Assembly (NCBI GenBank): GCA_019358935.1
Contig: JAHHIK010000008.1
Coordinates: 32,001 to 96,000 of the forward strand
Reading direction: 5' to 3'
DNA length: 64,000 nucleotides
Source of the DNA: Tolypothrix carrinoi HA7290-LM1
GTDB taxonomy: Bacteria > Cyanobacteriota > Cyanobacteriia > Cyanobacteriales > Nostocaceae
Of the stretch, positions 11,691-33,370 are shown piece after piece; within the stretch, counting starts at the first letter, position 1; every line of letters starts with the position of its first letter. Below the pieces are notes generated by a model. That model was not told where the DNA came from, did not search any database, and saw only the letters and a list, made by a program, of their open reading frames with translations. The position numbers were made by a program, and so were the translations under genes.

Positions 11691-11712
11691 TCAAAATGTT
11701 TGAGTTGATTTC

Positions 11713-11755
11713 TAAACGCAGAGTGGCGCTGAGGTATACGCAAAGGTGCGCGGAG
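11713..11755 (+). repeat. Solo copy of the GxxExxY-flanking four-unit CGCNRAG arm
   Basis: AA-CGCAGAG-TGG-CGCTGAG-GTATA-CGCAAAG-GTG-CGCGGAG. Confidence 0.75.
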
Positions 11756-19391: not shown

Positions 19392-20267
19392 TCACACCTC
19401 CGGTTCAATTCCCGCAGCTCTGAGTTGTTGTGCTAATCTATCAGCACGTTGACCTTCATCATCAGCACGTTGACGTTCCTCATCCGCACGTTGACGTTCC
19501 TCATCAGCACGTTGACGTTCATCCTCAGCACGTTGACGTTCCTCTTCTGCACGTTGACGTTCCTCTTCTGCACGTTGACGTTCTTCTTCTGCACGTTGAC
19601 GTTCTTCTTCTACACGTTGACGTTCTCTAGTTGTCAACTCCGAACCCCACAGCAGCAGTTCTCCGCTTTCATCCCACCAGCGCAACCAATAGCCATTTCG
19701 ATTTTCGCGGCTACCTTGCCATATACCTAAGAAAAGGTTCATTTCTCCAATCCAGCAACGATTATTTACATCTGGGGTTTGAATTTGATAGCGTCCTGAA
19801 TCATCCAATTGATAAACCTCCAGTACTCCAGTACTCGGTTCAAAAATTGCATAATTGGGAACTTGCAAAATCTGTTCGTAAAAAAACCACTTTCCCGGTG
19901 GATAAGTTGGTTTACTTGAATATTCCCCACCTTCGGTATCGGAAATAAATTCCATCACAATCACTGGAATATCTCCTTGAAGTCGCGGTGTATAACTGCG
20001 CGTCACTTCTTCTCGCGAAACCCGAATTGCTGGTACATATCCCCAATCAGGTGCTTTCACGACAAACTTATTATTTAAAGTGGCACAAATACCGTAGTTA
20101 GTGGTAGTCAAAGCATTCGCGGGTAATTTACCAGCAAATACCAAGCTTTCGGTTAACGCAGCAGCTAAAGGTGGTTGATTAATATTATCCACTGGCTCGT
20201 CATCTAAAATAAAATCGTCTGGTAACTTTTCCCAGGTAACTTCAAATGTGGCTGAATTAGCTAACAT
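19392..20267 (-). CDS. Uma2-family endonuclease with C-terminal heptad (EEERQRA)n coiled coil
   Basis: KAPDW, VMEFISD and WLRWWD motifs; 21-bp repeats at about 19440-19625. Confidence 0.85.
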   Translation of the reverse strand: MLANSATFEVTWEKLPDDFILDDEPVDNINQPPLAAALTESLVFAGKLPANALTTTNYGICATLNNKFVVKAPDWGYVPAIRVSREEVTRSYTPRLQGDIPVIVMEFISDTEGGEYSSKPTYPPGKWFFYEQILQVPNYAIFEPSTGVLEVYQLDDSGRYQIQTPDVNNRCWIGEMNLFLGIWQGSRENRNGYWLRWWDESGELLLWGSELTTRERQRVEEERQRAEEERQRAEEERQRAEEERQRAEDERQRADEERQRADEERQRADDEGQRADRLAQQLRAAGIEPEV

Positions 20268-20305
20268 AATGCTACTACCTCATTACGCCGTTTAATTATC
20301 GGTGG

Positions 20306-21283
20306 TTATTCTTGAGATGCAATACTTGACAAAAGTTGTTCAAAATCTGCAACTGAAGGAATAGCGATCGCTCTTTTGAGAAGCATTTTTAACACGGCAG
20401 ATTCCTCAATTTGATTAACAACTTCCACAATCGAACTTGGCACGAGTCCAAACCGTGTCTCTAAAACTTCAATCAAATTTTCTCGACTTGTTTGCAGAAT
20501 ACCTTGTTCAATTCCCTCTTCAATTCCTTCTGCTTTTGCTAGCCTTTCAATACTTGTTACGTACCGCATTCTATTTACCTCTTCGTAACTTCTCAATTCT
20601 GTTTTAAAATTATTTGCCAGTTCTTCTGGAAGTACCATCACCCAGTCAATAAACCGAAATAATCCCAAAATGTATTCTCGGTCATATCCCCTTTCAAACA
20701 AGCTTCTGACTAAGCTTAATTTCCACTGTAGCCTGAAGAGCGGATTTCGGTTTGTCGCCTTAGTTCTCAGATGTGCCATGACGACTATACTAAAGGGATT
20801 AGTACTTTGTTCCAGGCTTTCCCAGTCAGCTTCATAGTCTAAAAGTTTCGCGATAGGGAACTCTAAGCTGACACGACATCCCCCAAGTTGATAGTTATAA
20901 CTTGAAGGTCGCCAACTCGCTGATTCATCCGCTAAAACCGCCAAGCTAATAACTTGCTTTTTATGACGGTCAAACAAGCGATAATTATATGTATACATCC
21001 TTTCGGCAAACTTGCTGTCATATTGCCCTTGGACTTCCACATGAATTAATACCCAAGCTTCTTCACCATCAAGTAGCCAAACTTTCGCAACTTTATCAAC
21101 TAAACGCTTGCCAATTTCTGCATCAGGTTCTAACTGTTGCAGTTCAGTATCGAGAAATTCATAGTCTCTTTCCCAATCAATAACAATGTAGGCATCAAGA
21201 AAGAAGTATTCTAAAAAGCGAGGAAAAAAGCTTTCAATAACTTCTTTCCAGGGACTATCATAATCACTAAATTGCTCAGTCAT
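20306..21283 (-). CDS. Rpn-like PD-(D/E)XK nuclease family protein
   Basis: DYDSPWK, VDK...VLIHVEVQ and FAERMYTYNYR motifs; C-terminal MRYVTSIER...EGIEQG. Confidence 0.75.
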   Translation of the reverse strand: MTEQFSDYDSPWKEVIESFFPRFLEYFFLDAYIVIDWERDYEFLDTELQQLEPDAEIGKRLVDKVAKVWLLDGEEAWVLIHVEVQGQYDSKFAERMYTYNYRLFDRHKKQVISLAVLADESASWRPSSYNYQLGGCRVSLEFPIAKLLDYEADWESLEQSTNPFSIVVMAHLRTKATNRNPLFRLQWKLSLVRSLFERGYDREYILGLFRFIDWVMVLPEELANNFKTELRSYEEVNRMRYVTSIERLAKAEGIEEGIEQGILQTSRENLIEVLETRFGLVPSSIVEVVNQIEESAVLKMLLKRAIAIPSVADFEQLLSSIASQE

Positions 21284-21286
21284 GAA

Positions 21287-23014
21287 TTAAAACAAAAAGT
21301 ATCTTTGTGCCATTGGTAAAATCGTCGCCGGTTCGCAAGTCAGCAACTCTCCATCAGCGCGTACTTCATAAGTTTCCGCATCAACTTCAATGTGAGGTAA
21401 CGCATCATTCAACTTCATATCCCGCTTACTCAATTGACGTGTCCCGGAAACTGCAACAATTTGCTTTTGCAAACTCAACTGACTGGGAATTTCTCTTTCT
21501 AACGCTGCTTGCGAAACAAAAGTTAACGATGTGGCGTTCTTAGCACCTGCAAAACTACCAAACATCGGACGCATATGCACAGGTTGCGGTGTGGGAATAC
21601 TCGCATTAGCATCACCCATTTGCGACCAAGCAATCATTCCCCCTTTAACTACTATCTCTGGCTTCACGCCAAAAAAAGCAGGACGCCACAAACACAAATC
21701 TGCTATTTTACCCTCTTCCACTGAACCGACATACTCAGCAATTCCATGAGTAATTGCCGGATTTATCGTATACTTAGCAACATATCGCTTCGCCCGGAAA
21801 TTATCTGCTCTTTGCCCCTCTCCTTGTAGGAGAGGGGTTGGGGAGAGGTCTCCCCGCTGCACTTTCATTTTATGCCCCGTCTGCCAAGTTCTAATTATCA
21901 CTTCGCCTACCCGTCCCATCGCCTGAGAATCCGAAGAAATCATACTAAACGCGCCCAAGTCGTGTAAAATATCTTCGGCGGCGATCGTTTCCCGACGAAT
22001 GCGCGACTCAGCAAAAGCGACATCCTCGGCGATCGCTGGATCGAGATGATGACATACCATCAACATATCCAGATGCTCATCCAAAGTATTCACCGTGTAA
22101 GGGCGTGTCGGATTGGTAGAAGATGGTAACACGCACGGCGTACCGCAAACTTTGATAATATCTGGTGCGTGTCCTCCGCCTGCGCCTTCAGTATGGTATG
22201 TGTGGATAACGCGATTTTTGAAAGCAGCGATCGTATCTTCTACAAAGCCGGCTTCATTCAAGGTGTCAGTATGAATTGCCACTTGTACATCATACTCATC
22301 CGCAACGCTTAAACAAGTATCAATTGTTGCTGGCGTAGTTCCCCAATCTTCGTGTAACTTTAAGCCGATCGCACCCGCGTTAACTTGTTCTACAAGTCCT
22401 TGAGGTTGGCTAGTGTTGCCTTTGCCCAAAAATCCCAAATTGACGGGGAAAGCATCAGCAGCTTGCAGCATTCGGTAAATATTCCAGGGTCCAGGCGTGC
22501 AAGTTGTGGCATTTGTACCTGTAGCAGGACCCGTACCACCGCCAATCATCGTAGTAATACCAGAAGCGATCGCCACTTCAATTTGTTGCGGACAAATAAA
22601 ATGAATGTGGGTATCAATACCCCCAGCGGTGAGAATCATTCCTTCCCCCGCTAAAGCTTCAGTTCCAGGACCGATAATAATATCTACATTGTCTTGAATA
22701 TAAGGATTTCCAGCTTTCCCGATTTTGAAAATTTTGCCATCTTTAATGCCAATATCTGCTTTGACAATCCCCCACCAATCGAGAATTAAAGCATTTGTAA
22801 TCACTAAATCAACCGCACCATCAGCATTAGAAATCGGAGATTGTCCCATCCCATCTCTAATAACTTTACCACCACCGAATTTGACTTCATCGCCGTAAGT
22901 TGTGAAATCTTGTTCAACTTCAATAAATAATTCTGTATCAGCAAGTCGGACTTTATCTCCGACAGTGGGACCGAAAGTTTCTGCGTAAGCGCGACGAGAC
23001 ATTCTGTAAGGCAT
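21287..23014 (-). CDS. ureC: Urease alpha subunit
   Basis: [30 protein letters not shown] and SSDSQAMGR motifs. Confidence 0.98.
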
Positions 23015-23047: not shown

Positions 23048-23517
23048 TTTAAACGCAAAGTGACGCAAAGGTAAGCGCAAAGGGTTCGCTGAGGATGGAT
23101 GAGAATGATTTGAGTGGGGTGATAATTGGCTGTGGGATGCGAGTGCATACAGCGTTGGGACCGGGTTTGTTAGAGTCAGCTTATGAGGAGTGTTTGTATT
23201 ACGAGTTGACAAAGAAGGGATTAAATGTTGGTAAGCAAGTTCCATTACCCCTTGTTTACGAAGAGGTGCAATTAGATTGTGTTTATCGATTAGATTTAAT
23301 AGTCGAAAATAAAGTAATTATTGAAGTCAAATCTGTAGAATCTATTAAACCAATTCACTCAGTACAACTTTTAACTTATCTCAAACTCACCGATTGCAAA
23401 CTCGGTCTTATTCTCAACTTTAACGTCCTCCACCTCAAAGAAGGCATTAAACGTGTGGCAAATAAACTCTAACTCCGCGCACCTTTGCGCTTCCCTCAGC
23501 GTCCCTCTGCGTTAAAA
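23048..23517 (+). mobile_element. Putative GxxExxY cassette: gene bracketed by inverted 45-46 bp arms
   Basis: Left arm 23048-23093 ends 1 nt before the ATG; right arm 23473-23517 begins directly after the TAA. Confidence 0.55.
23095..23472 (+). CDS. GxxExxY family protein (PD-(D/E)XK-like nuclease)
   Basis: LGPGLLESAYEECL, YRLDLIV, IIEVKS and QLLTYLKL...GLILNF motifs. Confidence 0.92.
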   Translation: MDENDLSGVIIGCGMRVHTALGPGLLESAYEECLYYELTKKGLNVGKQVPLPLVYEEVQLDCVYRLDLIVENKVIIEVKSVESIKPIHSVQLLTYLKLTDCKLGLILNFNVLHLKEGIKRVANKL

Positions 23518-23616: not shown

Positions 23617-23814
23617 TTGGCTAATAAGTACAAAGTCACTATGCGTATAACAGGTTCAGATTACAAAGAAATACGCGGCTTTTTTGGGGGAGTTACAATA
23701 ACAGGCACAACGGCAGAAATCACCGTGGAAGCCGACGATCCAGAAACAGCTAAATCTACTGTAAGTAAACTACTCGGTCATCGTTTCCCTCTTTTAGGGG
23801 CTACAAAACTGTAA
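23617..23814 (+). CDS. Small hypothetical protein
   Basis: 65 aa, TTG start after aagag; globular-looking sequence. Confidence 0.5.
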   Translation: MANKYKVTMRITGSDYKEIRGFFGGVTITGTTAEITVEADDPETAKSTVSKLLGHRFPLLGATKL

Positions 23815-23990
23815 TTCAGTTTGTATATCGACTTAACGAAAACAAACCTGATATAAAAATTTACGCAAAAATGTAAAGGCGCTGAGAATCACTCTGCCTC
23901 TTTAAACTTTTGCGTGAAATTTCATATTTAAAATCAGCCAGTTTCCTAGTGACTGTATTGGAGTTTGAAATTAAACCTATTCAATAACCT

Positions 23991-24038
23991 TTTTTAAACG
24001 CACTCGTGACGCTGAGGGAAGCGCAGAGGTACGCAAAG
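23991..24038 (+). repeat. Solo copy of the GxxExxY-flanking arm next to the ureB stop
   Basis: AA-CGCACTCG-TGA-CGCTGAG-GGAAG-CGCAGAG-GTA-CGCAAAG. Confidence 0.75.
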
Positions 24039-24043
24039 GGTTT

Positions 24044-24349
24044 TTAGAGGTTGCCATTAATTCTGGCGTTGAAACCGTAAACTTGTCGGCTACCAGCAAG
24101 AGGAATTAAAGTAACTTCTTTCTCATCTCCTGGTTCAAACCTCACAGCAGTTCCCGCAGGGATATCAAGACGCATTCCCCTTGCTTTTTCCCTATCAAAA
24201 TTTAAAGCCGCGTTAACTTCAAAAAAGTGAAAATGCGAACCAACTTGAATTGGTCTATCTCCTGTATTTGCCACCAGCAATCTTACAGTAGAACACCCCG
24301 CATTTAATTCAATTTCCCCATCAGACGTAATAATTTCTCCAGGTATCAT
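24044..24349 (-). CDS. ureB: Urease beta subunit
   Basis: [17 protein letters not shown] and GTAVRFEPG motifs. Confidence 0.98.
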
Positions 24350-24362
24350 AAGTAATTAAAAA

Positions 24363-24510
24363 TGGATAGTTGATAGTTGATAGTTGATAGTTGATAGTGG
24401 TTAGTGGTTAGTCGATAGTCGATAGTCGATAGTAGTTCATAAAGCAACCAACAACTAGCAATTAACAACTAGCGACTAACAACTAACAACCAACAACCAA
24501 CTACTAACAA
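24363..24510. repeat. STRR inverted heptamer arrays between ureA and ureB
   Basis: (GATAGTT)n followed by (AACAACT/AACAACC)n. Confidence 0.85.
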
Positions 24511-24814: not shown

Positions 24815-24862
24815 CTTTCTCTCTTCCCTTTTCTCTGTGTCCTCTGCGCCTCTGCGGTTCGT

Positions 24863-25751: not shown

Positions 25752-27074
25752 TTAATATTTTTTCGCCAATATTACATAATCATCTAAAGAATAGTGCTGT
25801 TCATACTTATGACCAAGATACTTTTGAATCATCGAACTCATATACAGTTGCTTGGGTAACTTAGCTAGTGCAAATTTTCCAAACTCAACAGCCGAATAAG
25901 GTGTTCTTGAGCCTGTCGATGTAAGATACTTATACCACACAAGTTCTAACCCAAGTTCTGCCAAGAATTTATTTACCACCTTTTTTTCCTGTTCTTGGTC
26001 TTCTACTTGATAAGCATCATAAGCTTTAAATAGCTTCTTGTCTTGGACAACTAGCAGCACATAACCTTGTGGCTTTAATCTAGTAGCAAATATTTGTTTG
26101 TAGATATTATTTGCTTGAAGGCTTTTAACTGGAGTGTTAAAAAAACAATGGGAAACAGTTATAAAGTCAAAAAAATCTTTTGGGATATTACTAGATTGAG
26201 AATTCCAAGTAAAGATGTCGTCAGTTACAAAGCGAAAGTAAGCATTTACAGGCGTTTTTCGCGATTCTATATATCGTCGCCAAAATTGTAACCCTCGAAA
26301 TTGAAAAGCATCTTGTTTTTCTAAAGAATAGTAAGATATATGCATTTGCTGAATATCGAAAAAGCCGCTAGTACTTTGTAAAAATAAAGCTAAACCATAA
26401 GCAACTGTTCCCGGACCTGCGGCAATATCAAGTATGTTAATCTTATTTGGTAGTAAACCAGCTTTGTAAATCAAAAACCAAGCTAAGTAAATGCAGTAGA
26501 CATTTTCTAAAAAATACTTCATAAAGTAGACATGGGGAGTCAGACTAAAACGGTAATCTGGATCTTGTCCACTTTTTAAGCTATTAATATCTTCCAGAGC
26601 ATCTTCTATTTTAATTTTTAACTTGTTATCAGGTATTCTACTAAATTCTTCTTTGATATATTCAACTAATCTCGCTTCAAAGTCATCAAATATACGCTCA
26701 TCCAGACTAGTAGATTGTAGCTTGTTGACATCATGTTCTATTAGCTTAAATGCTTTGGAGACAAAATTGATAAATTCTGCTTCTGGCTTGAATAGAAAAC
26801 TATCTTGCTTTTCAAAAGCTACTTCAGTATTTAAATTTTCTAGTTTTTGTAGTGCTTCAGTTAATTTAAAACTTAAATTGGCTACCTCTCTTTTGTCTTG
26901 CTGCGAATAACTTTCTAACTGAAGCTTATCTCTAAATAGCTTCTCTAACCAGGAAAATTTTGCTCCTGATTTTTTAATTTCTTGCAACAATTTTCTTGCA
27001 ACTTGCGTATTGCCACGCTTCAGCGCAGATTTAAATTGCTGACTTCGCCACCAATTTGCTATAGCATTACTCAT
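25752..27074 (-). CDS. Uncharacterised protein with C-terminal class I methyltransferase-like fold
   Basis: ILDIAAGPGT (SAM motif I-like), FDFITVSHCF and LKPQGYVLLV; ATG overlaps the upstream stop. Confidence 0.65.
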   Translation of the reverse strand: MSNAIANWWRSQQFKSALKRGNTQVARKLLQEIKKSGAKFSWLEKLFRDKLQLESYSQQDKREVANLSFKLTEALQKLENLNTEVAFEKQDSFLFKPEAEFINFVSKAFKLIEHDVNKLQSTSLDERIFDDFEARLVEYIKEEFSRIPDNKLKIKIEDALEDINSLKSGQDPDYRFSLTPHVYFMKYFLENVYCIYLAWFLIYKAGLLPNKINILDIAAGPGTVAYGLALFLQSTSGFFDIQQMHISYYSLEKQDAFQFRGLQFWRRYIESRKTPVNAYFRFVTDDIFTWNSQSSNIPKDFFDFITVSHCFFNTPVKSLQANNIYKQIFATRLKPQGYVLLVVQDKKLFKAYDAYQVEDQEQEKKVVNKFLAELGLELVWYKYLTSTGSRTPYSAVEFGKFALAKLPKQLYMSSMIQKYLGHKYEQHYSLDDYVILAKKY

Positions 27075-27987
27075 AACCAAAGCCGTCTTTTCCTTCTTTG
27101 ATTTCCACGTCAGGAAGACGAGAAATCAAATTTTCCTTAAACTTTATATAATTTACTTGTTCTAAGTCATACCACCAAGCGTATTTTTGCTTAATACCTT
27201 GTGCTTCTTCGCGGGTTCCTGCCACAAGCGAACGATTATGGCTTGCGTGAAATTCCTGAATGACAATTCTATCTGCGATCGCTAATTTCTCAATAAAAGC
27301 GGCTTCATCTTCTGGTAAGGTGGGAAGTAGAGGCGTAATGGTGATAGAAACTTTCGGAATAAAACCTTTTAAAGGGTCAATAGTTTGTTTAATTTTGGTA
27401 ATAGCATTTAATCTGGCTTTGATACTAGGCGATCGCGCTTCAAAATCTCTTCTCACAGACTCGCTACCAGTGGGGATACTCATATTAATTCGCAACCGCT
27501 GAAATCGTTGTAAAATATCGATATCTCTGGTAATAATTGGACTGCGAGTTTGAATCACCAACGTTGGACGATATTCAAGCATTACCTCTAACAAAGAGCG
27601 CGTTAGCTGATGTTTAGACTCAATTGGTTGATAAGGATCTGTAACGCTACTCATATAAATTTTCGGAAATTTGTGAGGGTTTTTCTTATACCAGTTTTCT
27701 AACTCCTTCTCTAAAACTTGTGCAGCATTTTCCTTGATAATTACCCATTTTCCCCAATCTTGCCGCATTTGAGAATTAGGACTAAAAGCCGCAGCATAAC
27801 AATAACTACATCCGTATTGACAACCCCGATAAGGATTTAAAGTAAAATCATAAGCAGCGATAAAACCAGTTGCCGGATTTAGTATAGATTTAGCATTTTG
27901 AGCATAAACTTTGGCATCACCGAAAGTTTCTTTAACTAACTTTGTCGGAGTGCCTTCAGAATATCCTTCATAACGTGCTTTTGCCAT
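27067..27987 (-). CDS. Radical SAM protein, spore photoproduct lyase-like family
   Basis: LNPYRGCQYGCSYCYA and SSVTDPYQPIE motifs; ATG at 27987 preferred. Confidence 0.88.
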   Translation of the reverse strand: MAKARYEGYSEGTPTKLVKETFGDAKVYAQNAKSILNPATGFIAAYDFTLNPYRGCQYGCSYCYAAAFSPNSQMRQDWGKWVIIKENAAQVLEKELENWYKKNPHKFPKIYMSSVTDPYQPIESKHQLTRSLLEVMLEYRPTLVIQTRSPIITRDIDILQRFQRLRINMSIPTGSESVRRDFEARSPSIKARLNAITKIKQTIDPLKGFIPKVSITITPLLPTLPEDEAAFIEKLAIADRIVIQEFHASHNRSLVAGTREEAQGIKQKYAWWYDLEQVNYIKFKENLISRLPDVEIKEGKDGFGYE

Positions 27988-28120
27988 TTTTAAGCTTGAT
28001 ATAAGGTTGAATAAATCATGAATATTTCGCGCAAAGACGCTAAGAAAGAACTTTGCGTCTTTGCTTAAAATATGGTGCGGAGCGCGAAGCGCGTAACGCA
28101 CCCTACTTTATCTTCTATTT

Positions 28121-33291: not shown

Positions 33292-33370
33292 TCTTAAATT
33301 AGTCCATACCCTCTCCTCCTCTTCCTTCGCGCCCTTCGCGCCTTTGCGGTTCGTTTCTCTTCCTCCTCAC

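Follow-up and report, generated by a model that had tools for sequence, protein, structure and literature searches.

Paired GxxExxY Genes and Dispersed Heptamer Arrays: A Putative Nuclease–Repeat System

GxxExxY genes, encoding small putative nucleases, are found bracketed by a pair of inward-facing arrays of heptamer repeats, here described as 'arms', with arms of the same style dispersed, mostly singly, about the genomes in which such a gene resides. Across the genomes compared, each clade of the protein shows its own array geometry and its own inward pair, along with dispersed arrays which are abundant mainly where that clade's gene is resident. The link between gene and arm, as well as its clade specificity, is strongly supported by these comparisons, and what they describe is a real, non-random, and apparently undescribed nuclease–repeat system, with a fair chance that the mechanism as well is new. 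Under the reading preferred here, to which we would assign a probability of about 0.55, the resident nuclease would read the CGC..AG cores of the heptamers at a set spacing and nick or cut the array, with copying then effected by host recombination.

The gene in question is from the cyanobacterium Tolypothrix carrinoi HA7290-LM1, of the Nostocaceae (contig JAHHIK010000008.1). By 'the window' is meant the whole stretch of DNA that was analyzed, i.e., 64,000 nucleotides of that contig, as numbered from its first letter (Table 1).

The Gene, Its Arms, and the Protein

The GxxExxY gene lies between what we take to be ureB and ureC, urease gene and subunit names here being recognized from translations, without an HMM basis. 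It is upstream of ureC and antisense to both of these genes, just as the initial annotation of this DNA had it, with the ORF found on the forward strand and its neighbors both found on the reverse strand. The arms also bracket the gene as tightly as had been claimed: The final unit of the left arm stops 1 nt short of the ATG, and the right arm's first base comes directly after the TAA, i.e., with a gap of 0 nt. The 3/5/3 spacers originally ascribed to the left arm are, upon measurement, 3/5/4. Two further arms had been placed at 11713-11755 and 23991-24038, and both exist, the second however with a variant unit and 4/5/3 spacing. Overall, the window possesses six arrays of at least three units, versus none in 100 dinucleotide Markov resamples. 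A promoter and terminator scan found no excess relative to shuffles.

Table 1. Positions of the GxxExxY gene, arms, and neighboring genes of the window, along with GTACAG-type shells found elsewhere
Feature	Position	Strand	Basis or detail
GxxExxY gene, clade A, 125 aa	23095..23472	+	ORF, PF13366/TIGR04256 profile match
Left arm, style A	23048..23093	+	four C(G/A)CNRAG units at 23054-23093, spacers 3/5/4, preceded by an AT-rich TTTAAA head
Right arm, style A, inverted	23473..23517	-	four units at 23473-23511, spacers 3/5/3
Solo style-A arm, intergenic, partnerless	11711..11755	+	array 11717-11755, four units, 3/5/3
Solo style-A arm	23993..24038	+	array 23999-24038, variant first unit CGCACTC, 4/5/3
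Solo style-C arm filling ureD-ureA spacer	24833..24860	-	cognate is contig C47 paralogue
Solo style-C arm	33325..33352	-	
ureC, host gene, left-arm side	21287..23014	-	name by recognition
ureB, host gene, right-arm side	24044..24349	-	name by recognition
GTACAG-type shells	G001:C28 (L152); G004:C69 (L195); G000 C150:3928-4091; G000 C36:8199-8322		

Between the right arm and ureB are found about 520 bp, inside of which are a 65-aa ORF (23617-23814, forward strand) lacking a Pfam match, an imperfect hairpin with degenerate arm-like units (23858-23921), and the second of the solo style-A arms. The latter is located 5 nt from the ureB stop, and this same ureB-arm junction recurs in genomes in which ureB, arm, and ureC are directly adjacent. 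The first solo style-A arm occupies a site which in the relative G005 is occupied as well (L180). With the style-C arm of the ureD-ureA spacer, all three of three units differ from those of the orthologous G005 site (L305), and for the second style-C arm the orthologous slot in G006 holds instead a style-A arm (L350).

Various other features of the window may be noted. The ureA-ureB spacer (24360-24500) is taken up by heptamer repeats of another kind, which form a long, imperfect hairpin, and in close relatives the same spacer is a style-B arm which spans exactly from stop codon to start codon. At 28030-28060, in the 5' part of a predicted radical SAM ORF (27067-28101, reverse strand), a style-B-like array of two units is found together with an inverted partner, which suggests that the true start of that ORF is further in. 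Downstream of ureC (19392-21283, reverse strand) are two ORFs, one of 291 aa with a C-terminal ERQRAEE repeat and the other of 325 aa with weak similarity to Rpn/YhgA nucleases (TIGR01784, below cut-off).

The protein itself matches PF13366 (E 4.9e-43; 146.7 bits versus a cut-off of 22) and TIGR04256, i.e., GxxExxY (149.7 bits versus a cut-off of 35). Its AF2 model (pLDDT 95.6) is of a minimal, restriction-endonuclease-like PD-(D/E)XK domain, and on the strength of that model the protein can be placed within the PD-(D/E)XK superfamily as a putative nuclease. The best fold matches are to Cas4 (4ic1, 4r5q) and to restriction-type domains, with Z scores of 7 to 8, which is middling: 4ic1 is matched with a Foldseek probability of 1.00 (E 2.6e-3; Z 7.8, rmsd 4.3, 101 aligned) and BpuSI, 3s1s, with Z 8.0 (rmsd 2.6, 91 aligned). 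The motif layout is E27, D67, E77-x-K79, and Q91-xxx-Y95, the QxxxY motif being what we take to be a mark of the RecB family. Among 92 aligned rows the predicted catalytic residues E27, D67, and K79 are invariant, with E77, Q91, and Y95 nearly so. No cysteine is invariant in the conserved columns of those rows; by a separate count C33 is found in 80%. Cas4 HMM matches are weak (E of at least 2e-4). A search of the PDB by sequence returned no match, and the ESM Atlas returned no usable match outside of PF13366. Prediction of a homodimer scored 0.00, which speaks neither for nor against a dimer. The 50% cluster library also includes tandem, double-domain GxxExxY proteins of 266 to 295 aa (P0121-P0128), and such duplicates would be compatible with action as an oligomer. 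The family is listed as of unknown function in a family table of PMC3424549, and by our count consists of 20,421 clusters at 50% identity (E of at most 0.001).

Arms and Their Cognate Genes

The genome (7.96 Mb, 184 contigs) encodes three GxxExxY paralogues, as found by tblastn, and the three differ in the geometry of their arms. Style A, that of the window gene, has a TTAAA-type head and spacers of 3/4-5/3; style B, that of the contig C3 gene, has a CTCA head and spacers of 1/1; and style C, that of the contig C47 gene, has a GAAC head and spacers of 1-2/2. Each is seen on both sides of its gene. Arrays of at least three units number 239 in this genome versus 5 in a reversed-genome control, with spacer classes of 1/1 (73), 1/2 (69), 2/2 (34), 3/5/3 (35), and 3/4/3 (16). 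Arms total about 220, mostly single and intergenic (200 of the 220 are outside ORFs), with the consensus heptamer C(G/A)CNRAG. When 220 arms were set against the 6,182 ORFs of a simple call, inward same-style pairs within 3 kb of each other were seen to bracket only the three GxxExxY genes plus one 2,987-bp case. The idea that arms in this genome serve as brackets of other cargo genes is thus unsupported, there being only that one incidental case.

It had been suggested that heptamers are better conserved than spacers. This holds for the CGC..AG core but not for unit positions 4 and 5, which are as variable as the spacers. For the core, a count of 0 changes in 300 is biased by the search pattern and is given no weight here. 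Likewise, a unit spacing of about one helical turn describes style A but not styles B and C, whose periods are 8 to 9 bp. Also recurrent inside arms, between units, are small, GC-rich palindromic inserts (L008, L023, L042, L223, L234, L235; G000 C43:58442-58563). We assume for these the label 'SDR-like', SDR and STRR labels in general being used here in the same presumptive manner.

Relatives display the same arrangement. Cognate arms flank both sides of the gene at 18 of 18 fetched clade B, C, or D loci, and of the 48 closest cyanobacterial loci almost every one was seen by eye to have style-A arms on both sides. As a separate observation, L239 (G052:C19) and L240 (G025:C1) represent a fifth, more distant GxxExxY clade (35% identical), the flanks of which carry a different repeat, i.e., ATCCTG-type units ending in CAGAC and of opposite apparent polarity.

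A further 112 loci were collected from outside of the Nostocales: 32 from genome contigs (mostly Bacteroidota), 79 metagenomic, and 1 from IMG/VR. An array is found no more than 110 nt from a gene end at 92 of the 108 of these loci with enough flank, versus 1 of 159 control windows, so that the association of arms with GxxExxY flanks, as the initial annotation would have it, does extend across taxa. Of the 108, 42 have inward arrays on both sides and 16 have none at all. Arm geometry also covaries with protein clade, as had been anticipated, requiring 13 changes versus 39.6 upon shuffling over a quick IQ-TREE tree of 103 proteins, from which 41 of 144 proteins were omitted (36 lacking a three-unit arm, 5 mixed). 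In the clade uniting the window protein with Bacteroidota proteins (SH-aLRT 94), style A is seen in 53 of 56 rows. This fit of geometry to tree shows co-inheritance rather than recognition, and co-inheritance is to be expected of any linked unit.

Mobile replicons supply few family members, i.e., 8 among 72,556 plasmid records and 0 among 50,697 phage records. A scan of IMG/VR found a single locus (L261, on a 6.5-kb contig) with arms on both sides; that contig may be host-derived.

Also considered was the abundance of arms away from the gene. Exact-pattern counts of arms A, B, and C were made for 121 genomes of the family which are at least 90% complete, with the gene's own two arms subtracted from solo counts. 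Clade presence was called by identity, fragments and pseudogenes counting as present, and weaker remnants may escape the E-value cut-offs. At least 10 solo A arms are seen in 28 of 30 genomes with gene A versus 13 of 91 without, at least 10 solo B arms in 35 of 36 with gene B versus 18 of 85 without, and at least 10 solo C arms in 65 of 69 with gene C versus 11 of 52 without. Arms that are abundant without a gene, which had been put forward as the pattern that would speak against a link, are thus mostly not what is seen, though gene-less genomes of this sort do exist. Median cognate solo arms for A, B, and C are 24.5, 35.5, and 35 with the gene versus 0, 1, and 1.5 without. In a joint regression, cognate terms have t of about 10 and non-cognate terms at most 2.6. 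Solo-arm copy number, that is, tracks the presence of an arm style's own gene. The same is seen in within-genus contrasts between discordant genomes, where more arms accompany the cognate gene by 13:1 (A), 14:2 (B), and 11:0 (C), and the six non-cognate within-genus contrasts are null. As kin are not independent, p-values here overstate the strength of the association, and genus contrasts correct for this only in part.

Exceptions include gene-less yet arm-rich genomes (59 A arms in G113, 169 B arms in G060, and 98 C arms in G114) as well as four gene-bearing genomes with fewer than five solo arms; we assume these to be recent gene losses or gains. Arm integrity was considered for style B, with two mismatches allowed. 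The intact fraction is 0.62 with gene B versus 0.44 without (p 0.001), and is higher with gene B within genera by 12:2, but among genomes with at least 20 arms the difference (0.62 versus 0.51) is not significant (p 0.21). Seen as well was a clade-A pseudogene with decayed arms, in G029, a genome which has zero intact solo A arms.

Turnover of Cassettes and Arms

Cassettes, that is, a gene plus its arms, are sometimes inverted, moved, or deleted, and comparisons of loci place the break points within the arms or at their edges. Among 48 close homologues, 17 have ureC as a neighbor and 26 share a second locus, while a third locus accounts for 3 and the remaining 2 have rearranged surroundings. 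Further loci were seen as well, and clade A is present at four or more unrelated ones. Neighbors at the 48 loci are what we take to be housekeeping-type ORFs, with the neighbor gene names at other loci resting likewise on recognition. In G042 the clade-A gene is inverted with its TTTAAA heads and host flanks still in place, and in G051 a clade-B gene is inverted likewise (one of nine B loci). Assembled contigs from sequencing runs had no inversion joint among those listed. A survey upstream of ureC in 52 genomes, hand chosen and enriched for those bearing arms without the gene there, found cassette remnants in 8. These consist of a left arm plus first codons, arms around a deleted gene, a right arm plus last codons, or fused arms. 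The order ureB, one style-A arm, and then ureC was seen in 6 of the 52, with other styles so placed in a few and the rest armless. Comparison of ureB-ureC spacers, as had been proposed as a means of finding empty sites and target-site duplications, supplied a near-precise empty site in G096, which is of the same genus as G042. That spacer, whose length is 1 nt less than a duplication would call for under any model, may represent excision. Empty ureB-ureC spacers have no obvious shared target. At L121 (G002:C14:1268798-1269526), in a same-genus genome, the clade-A gene at ureC is split by about 370 bp.

The gene is under purifying selection, with amino-acid differences of 0.09-0.13 versus four-fold differences of 0.22-0.39. 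At the second locus its divergence tracks that of the neighboring gene (r 0.85). At the ureC locus, four-fold divergence in three cross-genus pairs is 0.14-0.24 for the gene versus 0.52-0.58 for ureC, with means over 121 pairs of 0.39 versus 0.48-0.53. That some cross-genus pairs fall below ureC in this way hints at allele exchange.

Solo arms turn over in sequence and in position. Full style-A arms within the genome are nearly all distinct (51 of 52). Orthologous arms differ at 21% of variable unit positions and at 19% of spacer positions versus 7% of flanks, where flanks include coding DNA; set against a figure of 13% for the gene's four-fold sites, variable arm sites differ at 26% and spacers at 20%, the pairs not being independent. 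With style C, all three units have changed in 5 of 13 orthologous arms, 4 of those 5 within flanks that are 94-98% identical. Genomes G005 and G006, furthermore, each display their own genome-wide heptamer 'dialect', which is also that of the gene's arms, and these dialects together with the all-unit changes look like en-bloc conversion. That the protein sequence sets the dialect was considered and rejected, since clade-C proteins of G005 and G000 are 97% identical and their dialects differ.

As to position, among 150 arm loci of relatives 102 are syntenic with G000, where an arm is present as well at 65, in some cases of another style, and other sequence at 33. Elsewhere an orthologous slot may be filled by an arm of a different style or by a heptamer hairpin unrelated to the arms, the ureA-ureB spacer being an example. 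Clean empty sites are seen at 4 of the 150 loci scored, 2 of which are true precise pairs, and none of these 150 shows a naked arm cleanly inserted. The precise cases (L152, L195, L314, L318) are instead shells of MITE type that have TWA or TA duplications, the arm serving as their cargo, so that part of arm dispersal is hitch-hiking. Shell 1, of 120-190 bp, has ends of the GTACAG type, has a TWA duplication of 3 bp, and has as cargo either style-A arms or a tandem repeat of 21 bp; 20 DDE_Tnp_4 loci did not include an autonomous IS with such ends. Two other shells were noted (L314 and L318 in G006; several G000 contigs), both carrying style-C arms: shell 2, whose ends are of CTCCCTT type and whose duplication is TA, and shell 3, with GGACTTACGCA-type ends.

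Internally deleted cassettes do occur at the ureC locus. As a general account of solo arms, such deletion is rejected: nhmmer found no gene fragments, and only 4 of 127 non-gene arms have tails which resemble gene ends above the null. With so few gene-like tails, the route by which single arms are seeded is left unexplained by deletion. The 'minimal autonomous element' originally proposed has partial support: The full cassette is seen at a few stable loci, and clean pairs of empty and filled sites are those of unrelated MITE shells.

Proposed Mechanism and Comparisons

The preferred reading may be put as follows. A small RecB/Cas4-like nuclease, probably acting as an oligomer, would recognize repeated CGC..AG cores by a spacing particular to its clade, nicking or cutting at the array. 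Other arrays would then serve as templates for host recombination and repair, or else these processes would leave an array in intergenic DNA that is AT-rich, with some arms later hitch-hiking in ordinary MITEs. Such nicking or cutting combined with recombination could account for inversion, relocation, concerted change, and single-arm seeding. A broader version, which we hold to be less likely than not, is offered here tentatively. In it, the spacing of one universal heptamer, and not its sequence, would program the target, and a 125-aa PD-(D/E)XK protein would be at the center of a new class of genome-resident replicator, one whose arrays of about 30-45 bp are copied and rewritten via host recombination without transposase, integrase, or reverse transcriptase, with several orthogonal codes per cell and in many phyla.

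Arms might instead be spread by other machinery, such as DDE transposases acting on MITE shells or host recombination, with the GxxExxY gene a passenger following upon arm abundance, for example because many arms allow arm-to-arm recombination by an incoming cassette. We consider this unlikely, even with many arms found inside shells of MITE type whose duplications (TWA, 3 bp, or TA, 2 bp) are clean, with one shell that also bears other tandem repeats, and with orthologous slots that swap arm styles and unrelated hairpins. Style-B arms, among the matches listed, are without a shell yet track gene B, and the shells of GTACAG type lack an autonomous IS among the loci noted above. Nor would a passenger explain why it is GxxExxY genes alone which are bracketed, why geometry follows protein clade across phyla, or why catalytic residues are kept under purifying selection. 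A regulatory role, with arrays as operators (autoregulation, regulon) which a domesticated DNA-binding protein would bind but not move, would be consistent with arms that are intergenic and near starts and stops, with conserved cores, and with purifying selection, and such a role has been proposed in a passage of PMC4679880 for intergenic heptamer repeats of Beggiatoaceae. Arm positions turn over between close relatives, however, with 37 of 102 syntenic sites scored armless in G000; there are also inversions and en-bloc rewriting, the catalytic residues are retained, and slots are interchangeable among three paralogues. This reading is, we think, very improbable.

An RNA-level explanation would have the arms pair, with a host dsRNA nuclease excising the cassette from operon mRNA in the manner of an intervening sequence (IVS), the protein binding or cutting arm RNA, and solo arms serving as RNA signals at stops and starts. 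The arms do abut start and stop codons and often occupy entire operon spacers, there is a weak fold resemblance to tRNA splicing endonucleases, and the predicted RNA fold does pair the arms (z -3.71), in keeping with an earlier suggestion that they fold the whole mRNA. There is a parallel as well in the Coxiella 23S IVS, which in the description in PMC4990558 is an ORF within inverted repeats that contain heptamers and is cut by RNase III. Set against this, none of 36 left/right pairs is fully complementary, and variable sites match between left and right at 70% versus 60% in permutations, i.e., slightly more than chance, implying that pairing is not tightly selected. On the sense strand A-C mismatches (27) exceed G-U (17), a wobble asymmetry that is uninformative under permutation given fixed margins. 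Among the 220 arms, same-style hairpin pairs number 7 of about 110 possible, the rest being single, and an RNA role alone leaves DNA inversion and dependence of copy number unexplained; on balance, it does not seem a probable account. Even less so would be a free-standing homing-type endonuclease, which cuts cassette-free spacers and is copied by homologous recombination, with arms protective or for recognition and solo arms as by-products. The lesser divergence of the gene than of ureC between some genera, its patchy presence, and the near-precise empty allele of G096 versus G042 are suggestive, but codon bias could depress the gene's apparent divergence, and at the second locus divergence tracks the neighbor as in vertical descent. 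Homing implies, too, one fixed site, whereas clade A is found at several, with only the hint of allele exchange at ureC; the empty ureB-ureC spacers lack an obvious common target; and dozens of solo arms per genome are not predicted.

Among known systems, the closest likeness is to RAYTs and their REPs/REPINs. There too, as described in passages of PMC3116915 and bioRxiv 10.1101/2021.07.10.451892, is found one resident enzyme gene per repeat class with its own repeat flanking it, several orthogonal enzyme–repeat pairs per genome, dozens to hundreds of extragenic copies, a dependence of repeat number and integrity on the enzyme, and rarity on plasmids and phages. By analogy, the GxxExxY gene would behave like a RAYT, i.e., present once per clade, for the most part resident, subject to purifying selection, and effecting upkeep of its repeat, with different chemistry. 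RAYTs, however, are HUH/tyrosine transposases, whereas Pfam and NCBIfam supply for GxxExxY only PF13366/TIGR04256, a PD-(D/E)XK assignment; REPs are palindromic and mostly inverted doublets, whereas GxxExxY arms are non-palindromic direct arrays and singlets; and the GxxExxY cassette undergoes inversion and relocation as well as what looks like exchange between genera and between phyla. Vertical inheritance, as would characterize RAYTs, is suggested at one locus only (r 0.85), with several loci, inversions, and sub-ureC divergence seen otherwise. The 'RAYT/REP-like' label first applied to this DNA thus is apt as analogy, that is, as a resident gene with a cognate dispersed repeat, but not as membership: by that analogy the GxxExxY system would work like one without being one, and the pairing belongs with those in which a resident enzyme has a dispersed repeat as its cognate.

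Other comparisons go similarly. TIRtrons/TIRYTs, in the account given in PMC3733652, also place an enzyme gene between long terminal inverted repeats which are also a dispersed repeat family, with enzymes that are IS200/IS605-type tyrosine transposases; GxxExxY repeats, differently, are internally periodic heptamer arrays. With IVSs of 23S rRNA, the portions of PMC4990558 that treat them indicate a shared small ORF in inverted repeats, including tandem heptamers, at a transcript-tolerated site, whereas the GxxExxY cassette is found between protein-coding genes, encodes another protein, and has imperfect complementarity and many partnerless copies. On enzyme, repeat form, or location the cassette accordingly falls outside of the RAYTs, TIRtrons, and IVSs. 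Cyanobacterial MITEs, small dispersed repeats, and STRRs share its intergenic niche, with arms found in MITE shells and palindromic inserts found in arms, whereas the arm lacks terminal inverted repeats or a duplication of its own; the passages of PMC3184786 and PMC3542288 on such repeats make no link to a GxxExxY gene. Versus DDE ISs and MITEs, the cassette has no DDE domain, has one copy per clade, and has variable heads. The core fold with its D..ExK plus QxxxY motifs (4ic1, 4r5q, 3s1s) and the weak HMM matches recall Cas4, RecB, and type II restriction enzymes, but the GxxExxY protein is only 125 aa, lacks in its conserved columns an Fe-S cysteine cluster, and has at the loci examined no CRISPR or methylase context.

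No account of the gene–arm link was found in the literature searched on GxxExxY, PF13366, PDDEXK_3, and TIGR04256 (mostly open papers), and what mention of GxxExxY appears in the relevant passage of bioRxiv 2021.01.26.428298 is incidental. It is this link that would be novel; the arm repeats or the GTACAG shell as such may already have been named.

For PF13366, a very large family for which we found no function assigned in the literature and which has no solved relative by sequence, there now is a specific putative substrate, and the three paralogues of a single genome supply a built-in, three-by-three specificity control. A tiny nuclease which reads spacing, if that is what this is, would be of mechanistic interest and of interest as a tool. 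For cyanobacteria, the arms suggest a possible origin for an abundant class of intergenic repeats, and the family as a whole may represent a second, unrelated route to the RAYT–REP way of life.
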